Assembly: GCA_937898545.1 (NCBI GenBank)
Contig: CALEJV010000003.1
Location: 253,193-317,192, forward strand
Direction: 5' to 3'
Length of the DNA: 64,000 nt
DNA from: an uncultured Candidatus Saccharibacteria bacterium
Lineage (GTDB): Bacteria; Patescibacteriota; Saccharimonadia; Saccharimonadales; Saccharimonadaceae
In this document: one piece after another, positions 53,518 through 56,821 of the stretch
How the letters are laid out: each line of letters begins with the position of its first letter
How positions within the stretch are numbered: position 1 is the first letter of the stretch
The notes under the pieces: generated by a model
Told to the model about the DNA's origin: nothing
The model's input: the letters and a program-made list of their open reading frames with translations, nothing else
Databases searched by the model: none
Made by a program: the position numbers and the translations under genes

Positions 53518-54862
53518 CCAATCACCCCCACCAAAAGGCAAAGTACCACCGCAAAGTCTCGATGCTGAGATGAGTTTGCTTGGTGCGGTACTTATCGACG
53601 AAGAAGTTTTGGCCGATGCTAGCGAGCATGTCGGTGCAGAAGACTTTTATGACAAGCGCCACGCGACGATCTTTGGGGCAATGATGCGCCTCTACGAGCG
53701 GCACAAGCCAGTCGACCTCCTCACACTAACCGACGAACTGCAAAAGAAAGACCAACTTGCCGAGGTAGGTGGCTCCGCCTACCTGACCGAGCTAACCAAC
53801 TACGTCCCCACCGCAGCCCACGCCAGCAGCTATGCTGAGATTGTCGCCCAAAAGGCGGTGCGGCGGCGCCTCATCAAAGCCAGTGCCGATATTAGCCAGC
53901 TTGGCTTTGACGAAAATACCACCACCCAAGAGCTGCTCGAAAAGGCCGAGGCAGAGCTCTTTAGTGTGTCTGACCAGTCACTCAAACAAGACCTCGTGAG
54001 CCTGGAGAGTATTCTCACCGATAGCTTCGACCGCATTGAGGAGCTGCACCGTAACAAAGGACAGCTGCGTGGCATTCGCACGGGCTACCGCGACCTCGAC
54101 ACGATGACGGCTGGCCTGCAGCGCTCCGACCTTATTATCATTGCAGCTCGCCCCGCCATGGGTAAGACGACACTGGTGACGAACCTCGCCTACAATGTCG
54201 CAACGATCGAAAAAAAGCCCGTCCTCTTCTTTTCACTTGAGATGAGTAAGGAGCAGCTCACCGACCGCATGCTGGCCGATGCCAGTGGTGTGGATAGCTG
54301 GAATATCCGCACTGGTAACCTCAGTGATGATGACTGGGCTAAGCTCTCCGAGGCAATGGGTGAGATGGCCGAAGCGCCAATCTTCATCGATGACACGCCA
54401 GGTCTGAGCGTCCTCGAGATGCGTACCAAGGCACGGCGCGCCATGCACGACCAGCAGCTTGGGCTGGTGATCGTCGACTACTTGCAGCTGATGCAGGCCA
54501 ATGGCAATCACAATGGCAATCGCGTCCAAGAGGTGAGCGAGATATCGCGCGGGCTCAAGCTGATTGCCCGCGAGCTCAATGTACCGGTCATTGCCCTAAG
54601 CCAGCTAAGCCGCTCGGTGGAGTCACGCACCCCGCCGGTGCCACAATTGGCCGACCTGCGTGAATCGGGCTCGATCGAGCAAGACGCCGATATTGTCTCC
54701 TTCATCTACCGGCCAGGCTACTACGAGCCAGATAACCCCGAGTTTCAAAACATCACCGACCTCATCATCGCCAAGCACCGCAACGGCCCAGTGGGCAAAA
54801 TCCAACTCTACTTCCACCCTGAGCGGCTGCGCTTCATGAGCCTCGACAAGCGGCATGATTGA
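53510..54862 (+). CDS. dnaB: Replicative DNA helicase
   Basis: PPQS.DAE..LLG, AARPAMGKT, FSLEM, VDYLQL, ALSQLSR, DLRESGSIEQDAD and IAKHRNGP. Confidence 0.99.
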   Translation: MADQSPPPKGKVPPQSLDAEMSLLGAVLIDEEVLADASEHVGAEDFYDKRHATIFGAMMRLYERHKPVDLLTLTDELQKKDQLAEVGGSAYLTELTNYVPTAAHASSYAEIVAQKAVRRRLIKASADISQLGFDENTTTQELLEKAEAELFSVSDQSLKQDLVSLESILTDSFDRIEELHRNKGQLRGIRTGYRDLDTMTAGLQRSDLIIIAARPAMGKTTLVTNLAYNVATIEKKPVLFFSLEMSKEQLTDRMLADASGVDSWNIRTGNLSDDDWAKLSEAMGEMAEAPIFIDDTPGLSVLEMRTKARRAMHDQQLGLVIVDYLQLMQANGNHNGNRVQEVSEISRGLKLIARELNVPVIALSQLSRSVESRTPPVPQLADLRESGSIEQDADIVSFIYRPGYYEPDNPEFQNITDLIIAKHRNGPVGKIQLYFHPERLRFMSLDKRHD

Positions 54863-55051
54863 TGCTATGCTATAGCTATTAAGCATAGGAGAACCACAGC
54901 AATGGTAGCCCGCACGGCATCACCACGCGCGCAACACACCAAAGAACCGTCTTCACCCTCACCGTCCTGCTCACCACTGGTTCGCTGTGCGATGATTTGT
55001 GGAGCACTTGGCCTCCTTGGCACTGCAGGGTGGCTGATATATCTTGGTTGG
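54821..55051 (+). repeat. Direct repeat copy 1 (dnaB tail + promoter/SD + 5' end of membrane gene)
   Basis: Aligns with copy 2 at a 728-bp offset. Confidence 0.9.
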
Positions 55052-55438
55052 ATGTTTGCAGTTTTTCTCTTTACACCGTATTTTTTATTACATACTAGCT
55101 TGATAACTCTTTTCTGGTGGCTTAGTGTTACGCTTATTATCGAAGCAATTGCAATTATTCGCATATACATCAGCCAGGGTAACCAACGCTATCGCGAAGA
55201 GGGATTTTGGCTCGCCTTGGCACTGTTCTTTCCATTACTGATAGTGAGTGAAGCGGTCTATAATGCTCTGTCTGCGCAGCAAATTCATGTGTTTTCGTCA
55301 AGCCCACAGTTGTGTTTCTTCGGTATTATGGTAACTACCCTAAGTGCTGTGTGTATGTGGTATTCGATGGGATACTCAGCACTAATACACAGCAAAGCTG
55401 CGCGAAAAAGACTTCTAGGTTTAGACCTACCACATTAG
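54902..55438 (+). CDS. 4-TM membrane protein A1
   Basis: SD AGGAG; hydrophobic helices; N-terminal ~50 aa nearly identical to A2. Confidence 0.8.
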   Translation: MVARTASPRAQHTKEPSSPSPSCSPLVRCAMICGALGLLGTAGWLIYLGWMFAVFLFTPYFLLHTSLITLFWWLSVTLIIEAIAIIRIYISQGNQRYREEGFWLALALFFPLLIVSEAVYNALSAQQIHVFSSSPQLCFFGIMVTTLSAVCMWYSMGYSALIHSKAARKRLLGLDLPH

Positions 55439-55470
55439 TGATTATTGCATAACATAGTGAGAAGAATACT

Positions 55471-55590
55471 ATGGCAGCTCAGACACAAACCATCCCAGCG
55501 CAAGCAGCCCAGCTAAAACATCCTCCATTGGGGCAGCGCAGAATCATCGAGTACCTACGCTTTATGAGTCTCGACAGACGGCATGATTAA
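55471..55590 (+). pseudogene. 39-aa chimeric remnant: gene-B-like N-terminus fused to a copy of the DnaB C-terminus
   Basis: MAAQTQTIPAQAAQLKHPPLGQRRIIEYLRFMSLDRRHD*. QRRIIE matches the 56309 gene; LRFMSLD.RHD* matches the end of DnaB. Confidence 0.8.
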
Positions 55591-55790
55591 TGCTATGCTA
55601 TAGTTATTACACATAGGAGAACCATTGCAATGACAGGCCACACGACATCACCACGCACACAAACCACTAAAGAACCGTCTTCACCCTCACCATCCTGCCC
55701 ACTACTAGTCCGCTGTGCGATAGTTTGTGGAGCGCTTGGCCTCCTTGGCACTGCTGGGTGGCTCATCTATCTTGGCTGGGCAGTAGCAGT
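55549..55790 (+). repeat. Direct repeat copy 2
   Basis: Aligns with 54821-55051, e.g. the identical block AAAGAACCGTCTTCACCCTCACC. Confidence 0.9.
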
Positions 55791-56172
55791 CTCTGCTATT
55801 GGGCCGTTTGCATTCTTGATTTGGATAGAATACATTGTCGTAGGCTTGTTTTGGATACTCGGGATTGCCCTTATTATTGAGGCAATTGCGCTGATCCATA
55901 CTTACACCCGTCGCTCGGGGCAGCGCTACCACGAGGAAGGGTTTGGGCTCGGCGTTACGCTGCTCTATCCACTGCTCGCAGGTGTCGAGATGGGATACAA
56001 TGCGCTCATACATAGTCAATCACAGCAGAATATCATGGCATTTGCCAATCCTCTAGCGGTACTGATGGGTATTATCATGATCACACTCGGCGCAATATAC
56101 CTGTGGTATCAGTTGGGACAATCGGCATCGATGAGACAAGCGAATAATGACAAGGCTATATCGCTCACATAA
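55630..56172 (+). CDS. 4-TM membrane protein A2 (paralogue of A1)
   Basis: Shares KEPSSPSPSC.LVRCA..CGALGLLGTAGWLIYLGW and QRY.EEGF.L with A1. Confidence 0.8.
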   Translation: MTGHTTSPRTQTTKEPSSPSPSCPLLVRCAIVCGALGLLGTAGWLIYLGWAVAVSAIGPFAFLIWIEYIVVGLFWILGIALIIEAIALIHTYTRRSGQRYHEEGFGLGVTLLYPLLAGVEMGYNALIHSQSQQNIMAFANPLAVLMGIIMITLGAIYLWYQLGQSASMRQANNDKAISLT

Positions 56173-56308
56173 CGCCTCTGTTTGTGGTCTCGCTATGATA
56201 CTACTATCTACATTACGTTTAGTCCTCGAGAGGCAGAGGAAATGTATCCTTTGTGCAACCTTGCTATAATACAATCACAAGCAGCCTAGCGCAATAAAGG
56301 AGGCATCT

Positions 56309-56821
56309 ATGGCCACATCCCACACAACAACCGTTATAACTCAGACAATCCAAACCAAACAGCAGCGCAGAATCATTGAGCGCCTCGCTACCATTCTTGC
56401 CTGCTGCGGTATTATCCTTATTGGCGTTTTTCTCACTCTTGTTGAATCGATGGGCATTTATAGTGCATCGACCGGCTTTGAGAGGACAGAGCCACATGAG
56501 TATATCACCATGCTTAGTATGCTTGTCTATGCAATCAACCTCGCCGTGCAAGCTATCTATGTCATGATTCGCACTGTGCGTTCAACGATTGCGCCGTATC
56601 GTCAGCAAGCAGCAGCGTTTGTGGCCATCCTTGGTTATTTTGTCACATTAGCGGCCGTATATCTCTATCACCACTATTTTGTTCAAGATGGGTTCGGTCC
56701 ACGCACCTTTCTCCAGACGACGGCTGGTACTGCTCTTGGCCTCACTATTTCTGGTATTGGCTCACTCTATCTGTGGTATGTGCTGCTGCGAACGCGCAAA
56801 GGGCAGGTGGTTCGCTCTTGA
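56309..56821 (+). CDS. 4-TM membrane protein B
   Basis: GGAGG SD; hydrophobic helices; C-terminal LYLWY..L motif like A1/A2. Confidence 0.78.
   Translation: MATSHTTTVITQTIQTKQQRRIIERLATILACCGIILIGVFLTLVESMGIYSASTGFERTEPHEYITMLSMLVYAINLAVQAIYVMIRTVRSTIAPYRQQAAAFVAILGYFVTLAAVYLYHHYFVQDGFGPRTFLQTTAGTALGLTISGIGSLYLWYVLLRTRKGQVVRS

Follow-up and report, generated by a model that had tools for sequence, protein, structure and literature searches.

Introduction

Tandem duplications that arise by unequal crossover at microhomology consist of head-to-tail units in the same orientation, which are joined by one chimeric junction. Dimorphic or allelic cassette loci, in which alternatives are located between conserved flanks, are a concept from pneumococcal and neisserial population genomics. 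Small multi-helix membrane proteins that are encoded in variable tandem arrays resemble orphan immunity genes. Here, we describe a locus that shares features with each of these systems. It is located in a stretch of 64,000 nucleotides (hereafter, the window) on contig 3 of a 1.05 Mb genome of an uncultured Candidatus Saccharibacteria bacterium (GCA_937898545.1). Between the gene of the replicative helicase, dnaB, and a gene for a PMT_2-like membrane glycosyltransferase (PMT), the window contains A1 and A2, which encode orphan membrane proteins with two different body types, a chimeric open reading frame (ORF) between them, and B, a distant paralog of A. The region is a polymorphic, clade-specific island, in which two cassettes that had diverged beforehand were probably merged in tandem at one microhomology junction.

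The repeat and the chimeric junction

A repeat search revealed a single repeat family at the locus, which consists of two copies in the same orientation with a length of 236 nt, an identity of 84% and a spacing of 728 nt. A repeat of around 230 bp recurring 728 bp further downstream had already been reported in a first-pass annotation, a reading of the letters without database searches. The repeat unit, which is referred to as the 5' module, holds the last 12 dnaB codons, a promoter-like site, a Shine-Dalgarno (SD) sequence and around 50 codons of gene A. When the identity at an offset of 728 was determined in 20-nt windows, it rose from 4/20 to 14-19/20 at position 54820, was kept up to around position 55059 and then dropped to 6-7/20. 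Inverted pairs with more than 88% complementarity or of more than 25 nt were not found within positions 53500-58000.

The chimeric ORF begins as the head of B and ends as the tail of dnaB; its translation is MAAQTQTIPAQAAQLKHPPLGQRRIIE, followed by Y and LRFMSLDRRHD. Alignment of the A1-A2 spacers with the dnaB tails and B heads revealed a breakpoint that is common to all tandem genomes, with ...CAGCGCAGAATCATCGAGCG(C/G)CT on its left and (A/G)CGCTTCATGAGCCTCGACA... on its right side. The junction alignment, together with both parental sites, thus bears out the previous suggestion of a 39-residue fusion of the B head to the DnaB tail with a crossover in microhomology. The chimera has retained IIERLRFMSLD (GAGCG[C/G]CT) in 8 of the 13 genomes that carry it, which makes the tyrosine of the window a later change (CG>TA). 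Among the outgroups, one dnaB allele carries GAGCGCCTACGC, which matches the junction of several relatives and suggests that the ancestral microhomology may have been a perfect 8-mer; an outgroup dnaB allele with GAGCGCCT was also found.

The chimeric ORF is regarded as the scar of the junction. Its head of 27 residues (MTAQTQTTPVQAIQLKHPPLGQRRIIE), designated alpha, is the actual N-terminus of B in five genomes that contain A1 only, and does not represent a diverged version of the head that B bears downstream of A2. B genes downstream of A2 bear other head types, named beta, gamma and delta, and at least four head types exist overall. In eight genomes, one common deletion of 125 bp (ACCAC/...CCTAC/, with slashes marking its ends) has removed the head of the scar, and only the dnaB-tail remnant is left. 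This remnant is around 84-92% identical to dnaB, with most relatives being closer than the window (Table 1), and the 24-nt segment of the scar encoding QRRIIERL is 88-100% identical to B. Judged by these identities, both remnants at the junction are of young age.

Age contrast between A1 and A2

Synonymous divergence (dS), the proportion of synonymous differences (pS) and the ratio of nonsynonymous to synonymous divergence (dN/dS) were calculated pairwise according to Nei and Gojobori. In the window, A1 and A2 are identical at 40/50 residues in the first 50 positions and at 51/123 beyond. The step from similar N-termini to diverged bodies, which had been noticed in the first-pass annotation, is thus real, while the wording "nearly identical" was slightly generous. 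The dS between A1 and A2 is 0.23-0.27 for codons 1-45; beyond codon 50, pS amounts to 0.68-0.84, which corresponds to saturation. In comparisons of orthologs, pS is highest in the 5' part (0.29-0.32), and the low dS between the 5' parts of A1 and A2 can therefore not be explained by constraint at the nucleotide level. Saturation of synonymous sites cannot result from selection that acts on the protein, and the bodies must therefore be far older than the repeat. Among the species of the subclade, dS is 0.33 for dnaB, 0.28 for PMT, 0.23-0.24 for A1 and A2, and 0.34 for B. Furthermore, the spacers and the B heads of the two cassettes cannot be aligned. Age is thus not uniform along the unit, and the two units are not copies of one sequence. 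The combination of saturated bodies with an unsaturated 5' module suggests that the cassettes had already diverged when they were joined. A duplication followed by rapid diversification, as it had been proposed, is not in accordance with this contrast, and the bodies were not driven apart by selection.

Architectures in related genomes

The architecture of the locus was surveyed in 35 species-level loci and the window using tblastn and ORF reading. The relatives belong to Candidatus Saccharibacteria and Candidatus Nanosynbacter and originate from human oral metagenomes. The flanks of all 35 loci mark them as one subclade, with protein identities of 99-100% for DnaB and 98-99% for PMT. Four arrangements were found. 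The order dnaB-A1-chimera-A2-B is present in 13 genomes (the window and 12 loci), and eight genomes have the order dnaB-A1-A2-B with the chimera head deleted (L061, L063, L064, L069, L071, L076, L078 and L081), so that the common junction is found in 21/36 species-level genomes, the window counted. A further ten genomes contain dnaB-A2-B, and five contain dnaB-A1-B (L083-L087), in which B bears exactly the head of the chimera. A1 orthologs are present at 26 loci (82-89% identity) and A2 orthologs at 31 (84-91%), and A never exceeds two copies at the locus. The comparison of copy number across relatives that had been recommended in the first-pass annotation thus yielded A1 only, A2 only or both, with or without the scar and with or without a 2.8-kb cargo, rather than one fixed arrangement in all relatives.

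No homologs of A were found in the 25 other species of the genus that were searched, nor in another 24 families of the order. In ten outgroup congeners, whose DnaB is 83-92% identical, dnaB is directly followed by the PMT_2-like gene. This empty site identifies the A/B region as a clade-specific island in the dnaB-PMT spacer. The trees of dnaB and PMT are star-like and mutually incongruent, and the architectures are scattered over both, which fits frequent homologous exchange. Due to this shape, mapping of the architectures onto the flank trees gave no polarity of events.

Since the genome of the window is a metagenome-type assembly, it was considered whether strains with cassette 1 and strains with cassette 2 had been collapsed or concatenated by the assembler. 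Three short contigs with an identical A2 (L093, L096 and L097) indeed end just upstream of A2, inside the repeat module. However, no assembler would invent the specific fusion of a B head to a dnaB tail, the repeats are just 84% identical, and the junction is present with its own substitutions in 13 species-level genomes and in eight more that share the secondary deletion. Moreover, the tandem with an identical A2 protein was found on at least seven independent contigs from different samples and assemblers, which span dnaB-A1-A2. An assembly artefact is therefore extremely improbable, and the independent assemblies exclude the mis-assembly that had been named as a concern. Contigs that span the locus and encode identical proteins also keep the same architecture, which applies to the at least seven tandem contigs as well as to 3/3 A2-only contigs and, among those listed, to 9/9 A1-only contigs. 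Each architecture is thus stable within its lineage over short time scales.

Two further observations concern individual relatives. In locus L066 (G007:C1:2570-3898), the protein encoded by the dnaB adjacent to the island has an identity of just 72%, compared to 99-100% in all other subclade members, and the same assembly holds a second contig with a 98% identical dnaB fragment; the dnaB of L066 could be a divergent allele acquired by recombination or the result of a bin or assembly mixture. In five genomes (L080:4593-7176, also L067, L073, L078 and L082), a 2.8-kb cargo is located between A2 and B. Its genes encode an MFS transporter, an NmrA-like NAD(P)-binding protein and, on the minus strand, a TetR regulator. 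The cargo takes the place of the last around ten codons of A2, which then ends with MRQLQSRALL, and has a GC content of around 0.52-0.59 compared to 0.48-0.52 for A and B. Neither blastn nor tblastx detected a match between the cargo and the window.

Selection and exchange of N-terminal tails

Pairwise dN/dS is 0.008 for dnaB, 0.044 for PMT, 0.25 for both A1 and A2, and 0.26 for B. The highest 30-codon windows correspond to the N-terminal tails, with values of 0.53 for A1, 0.36 for A2 and 0.81 for B; in these pairwise estimates, for which site models were not run, no window exceeded 1. Nucleotide diversity was determined for ten full tandem genomes and is 0.02-0.10 in dnaB, PMT and the A bodies, with the latter not exceeding the two flanking genes. 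It reaches 0.18-0.24 in the first around 25 codons of A1, 0.19 in the first codons of A2, 0.15-0.25 in the A2 3' end, the spacer and the B head, and 0.11-0.19 in the first half of B.

The tails of A occur in discrete types, e.g., RKQLTKEPSAASSSC, RVQSTEESSSSSSSC, RIQSTKESPSSSSSC and RTQxTKESSSPSPSC. Most tail types were seen on both A1 and A2 bodies, and the RIQS type was found only on A2. A tree of the 5' modules contains mixed A1/A2 clades with a support of 0.95-0.99. General concerted evolution of the 5' modules was considered and rejected, as the identity of modules within a genome (0.817) is no higher than that between genomes (0.823); L077, whose two modules are 91.5% identical compared to a mean of 81.7%, is an exception. 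The 5' modules are thus exchanged between the two positions and between genomes, which confirms the allele swapping that had been anticipated, with N-terminal modules moving from one A gene to the other as well as across species. According to a previous report, Saccharibacteria are naturally competent (PMC10633639).

Using a profile of A, an exhaustive search of 1.84 billion representative proteins yielded four representatives, all of the A1/A2 type, and thus only two A body types. The first-pass annotation had described the locus as an expanding and rapidly varying cassette. Only these two body types and at most two copies at the locus do not support an expansion, and a dN/dS of around 0.25, A bodies that do not exceed the flanks in diversity and constant architectures do not support rapid variation. 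A dimorphic locus with swappable tails is a better description.

Origin of the tandem arrangement

The reading we favor, and which we consider probable, places the island, whose genes encode small orphan membrane proteins of a common four-helix family, in one tight subclade of oral Nanosynbacter-like Saccharibacteria, between dnaB and the PMT_2-like gene. Two cassettes can be distinguished at this site: cassette 1, with the A1 body, a short spacer and an alpha B head, and cassette 2, with the A2 body, a long spacer and a beta, gamma or delta B head. Both have a common left flank, comprising the dnaB tail, the promoter and the first around 50 codons of A, and a common right flank, which is B from RRIIERL onwards. 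The tandem would have arisen once, by an illegitimate unequal crossover in the 8-nt sequence GAGCG(C/G)CT, which fused the B head from a chromosome with cassette 1 to the dnaB tail from a chromosome with cassette 2, thereby leaving the 39-codon scar and doubling the dnaB-tail promoter and the A 5' module. Later, the tails would have been shuffled by homologous exchange, both from one 5' module to the other and across genomes, for which natural transformation is a plausible route; such exchange can also delete A1. One 125-bp deletion would have taken most of the scar, and one TetR-MFS-NmrA cargo would have been inserted behind A2.

Several findings weigh against this history. The B bodies of A1-only genomes nest within those of tandem genomes, and three A2-only genomes (L053, L075 and L082) bear A1-typical tails; both findings fit a descent of the single-cassette forms from the tandem by deletion, in which case they would not be its parents. 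In addition, there is no known source of two saturated cassettes, since the island is confined to a subclade with a housekeeping dS of around 0.3. The scar ORF is intact in 13/13 genomes that carry it and has a pN/pS (proportions of nonsynonymous and synonymous differences) of 0.31, which would be unusual for a neutral relic. The intact ORF may be due to exchange with functional copies or to expression of a small peptide; the scar was nevertheless deleted in eight genomes. The nesting and the tails would fit an old, true tandem duplication of the segment from the dnaB tail over A to the B head at the same microhomology, after which bodies and heads diverged in place. A1-only and A2-only genomes would then have lost the other copy by deletion, either via the 5' modules or between QRRIIERL of the scar and B. 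Both deletion products match homologous recombination inside a tandem, the A1-only B bodies take up two separate positions within those of tandem genomes, the two 5' modules demonstrably exchange sequence, and the family does grow by duplication, as illustrated by a paralog, P, and by a tandem pair of 329 and 296 amino acids elsewhere (see below). However, such an old duplication also needs gene conversion or unequal exchange to have kept the 5' module and the remnant similar. The remnant and the QRRIIERL segment look young beside saturated bodies and unalignable heads, it is unlikely that conversion would keep a relic of 24 nt fresh, and modules within a genome are no more similar than those of different genomes. 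We therefore regard the old duplication as a serious alternative of clearly lower probability than the merger of two pre-diverged cassettes.

A further proposal, which follows the first-pass annotation, concerns function and is compatible with either history. According to this proposal, A and B are immunity, phage-receptor or surface-variation proteins, and the locus is under balancing or diversifying selection. Two deeply diverged body types indeed persist across many species as a presence/absence polymorphism, and the N-terminal tails, together with the first half of B, form peaks of nucleotide diversity that are three- to four-fold over the flanks. However, dN/dS is low overall and exceeds 1 in no window, the diversity of the A bodies is not above that of dnaB or PMT, and toxin, phage or defence genes are not found among the neighbors, nor were there matches in PADLOC, PHROGs, Pfam or NCBIfam. 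For the tails, which are the most variable parts, a cytoplasmic location is predicted, relatives contain some frameshifted or split copies, and the architectures are stable within lineages. An adaptive diversifying locus is thus unlikely. It could also be speculated that A1 and A2 represent a trans-species dimorphism of an epibiont membrane protein under balancing selection, e.g., for immunity to or recognition of a factor from a host, competitor or phage, with the tandem providing one cell with both specificities and the disordered tails forming a second, freely reassorting specificity module that is exchanged by natural transformation; we consider this more specific version doubtful. The merger of pre-diverged cassettes remains the favored history.

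Organization of the locus and promoter-like sites

The features of the locus are listed in Table 1. Its neighbors are dnaX, dnaB, the PMT_2-like gene and a methyltransferase gene of the RrnaAD family. A Pfam search assigned the PMT_2-like gene to PF13231 with 36.1 bits compared to a cut-off of 26.1 (E 1e-8). Recombinase or reverse transcriptase genes were not found in the island; the rest of the genome was not searched for programmed-variation systems such as invertible shufflons, diversity-generating retroelements or phase-variable repeat tracts.

Table 1. Positions of the genes, repeats and junction elements in the window.
Feature	Position	Strand	Remarks
dnaB (replicative helicase), conserved left anchor	53510-54862	+	450 aa; Pfam DnaB E 1e-34, DnaB_C E 1e-108
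dnaB-side breakpoint microhomology GAGCGGCT (codons E-R-L, DnaB tail)	54821-54828	+	sequence and junction alignment
5' module copy 1 (dnaB tail, promoter-like site, SD, A codons 1-50)	54827-55062	+	direct repeat D1
Promoter-like site TCGACA-17-TATGCT with upstream TG	54843-54871	+	consensus scan only
A1, orphan membrane protein, body type 1	54902-55438	+	ORF, 178 aa
Chimeric ORF, junction scar	55471-55590	+	39 codons, MAAQTQTIPAQAAQLKHPPLGQRRIIEYLRFMSLDRRHD
Alpha-type B head within chimera	55471-55551	+	equals B N-terminus of A1-only species
Chimera junction GAGTACCT	55549-55556	+	sequence
5' module copy 2	55555-55790	+	direct repeat D1
dnaB-tail remnant within chimera	55557-55590	+	31/37 identical to dnaB tail
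Copy of promoter-like site, -35 in dnaB-tail remnant	55571-55599	+	consensus scan only
A2, orphan membrane protein, body type 2	55630-56172	+	ORF, 180 aa
B, distant paralog of A	56309-56821	+	ORF, 170 aa
B-side microhomology GAGCGCCT	56378-56385	+	sequence
PMT_2-like membrane glycosyltransferase, conserved right anchor	56855-58315	+	486 aa; Pfam PF13231

The -35 hexamer of the promoter-like site in the 5' module corresponds to codons for Leu-Asp-Lys in the DnaB tail. All remnants, including the deleted forms, have CTCGACA without variation, and the 125-bp deletion ends just upstream of it. The motif TCGACA-17-TATGCT can also be found in the dnaB tails of the outgroups, directly before the PMT gene. 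The putative promoter would thus be ancestral within the 3' end of dnaB and would have been captured by the island; its duplication together with the junction would have allowed A2 to keep a promoter of its own. The best promoter-like site of the region, TTGAGC-17-TATAAT (10/12), is located at positions 56818-56846, a short distance upstream of the PMT_2-like gene, and includes part of the stop codon of B. Following the insertion of the island, the PMT gene appears to use a promoter other than that in the dnaB tail of the outgroups.

The A and B membrane protein family

For A1, A2, B and P, all hits in Pfam, NCBIfam, PADLOC, PHROGs and the sequences of the PDB remained below the respective cut-offs. 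The NCBIfam family NF045610 (acin_4_helix, "putative four-helix membrane protein") has a size class and a four-helix membrane architecture like A2; however, it matches A2 only, with an E-value of 0.031 and 14 bits compared to a cut-off of 50, and A2 is not a member of this family. Direct comparison of the A and B profiles using hhalign gave an E-value of 0.0077 and a probability of 5%. The paralog P (G000:C4:27774-28295; L026:1453-1977) is the fourth member, consists of 174 amino acids and is encoded elsewhere in the genome, between a holA-like gene and rpsT, as named from the ORFs. Full-length alignments of P gave identities of 35-40% with B (E 1e-15 to 1e-17) and of 25-28% with A2 (E 1e-5 to 1e-8), thereby tying A and B into one family. 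P is present in just 5/11 subclade genomes, and this second locus is thus likewise polymorphic for presence and absence.

Longer relatives of 329 and 296 amino acids are encoded in tandem at L029:1297-3119 (G033:C6), with similar pairs in G001:C21, G007:C6, G030:C8 and G012:C3; the genome of the window does not contain the pair. Both proteins share the GS(I/L)YLWY helix and possess long N-termini rich in Ser, Thr, Pro and Gln, which span around 95 amino acids in the 329-residue protein. When remote homologs of B and of the 329-residue relative were searched for, matches were confined to the same clade. A 408-residue protein (G000:C5) with a weak match appears, judged by its sequence alone, to be a chance match to a larger, unrelated multi-pass membrane protein.

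An AlphaFold2 model of A2, which has a low confidence with a predicted local distance difference test (pLDDT) score of 55, shows a disordered tail (residues 1-24) and four long helices (residues 25-55, 61-94, 98-131 and 141-178). Lys and Arg residues precede helix 1 and are also present in loop 2 and at the C-terminus. Based on the positive-inside rule and this model, a cytoplasmic location (N-in) is predicted for the tail of A, the RRSGQRY loop and the C-terminus, which argues against the variable tail as a surface epitope. The acidic loop 1 of B, which is part of its variable first half, is predicted to face outward.

Apparent pseudogenes were found in relatives: B is split by a frameshift in L057:4626-5124, the N-terminus of A1 is frameshifted in L087:1254-1780, and the alpha head of B in L083:4575-4600 contains an in-frame TAA with a GTG start downstream. 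Frameshifted clusters are also present among the representative proteins. The genes are therefore dispensable in some lineages.

Comparison with known systems

The locus is a well-documented example of known processes, namely illegitimate recombination at microhomology and subsequent homologous exchange, acting on a new orphan gene family. It provides a readable case of a naturally competent epibiont with a minimal genome that builds and reshuffles a lineage-specific gene family: one junction, a putative promoter captured in the tail of an essential gene and the later gain, loss and swapping of modules between species can be followed in public metagenome genomes. The dnaB-PMT spacer is thereby marked as a hot spot of integration and variation in oral Nanosynbacter, and an orphan membrane protein family comprising A, B, P and the longer relatives is defined, which can be tested in cultivable strains.

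Membership in the immunity arrays of polymorphic toxin or bacteriocin systems is not supported. The locus shares with them small multi-helix membrane proteins, diverged paralogs in tandem and presence/absence variation, but it lacks an adjacent toxin, secretion or bacteriocin gene, a match to any protein family and a signature of positive selection. The similarity to tandem duplications formed by microhomology-mediated unequal crossover is closer, as the units are likewise arranged head to tail in the same orientation with one chimeric junction and 8 nt of microhomology at both parental sites, and the duplicated flank is a substrate for homologous deletion and exchange. Here, however, the units are not copies of each other, with cores saturated at synonymous sites compared to a dS of around 0.25 in the flank, and in contrast to transient amplifications, the arrangement is stable and has been inherited by or spread across many species. 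As in dimorphic cassette loci, deeply diverged alternatives are located between near-identical flanks, their distribution does not follow the genealogy of the flanks, and the group is competent (PMC10633639). Unlike in those loci, the products are orphan proteins, and the alternatives are physically merged in tandem in most genomes.

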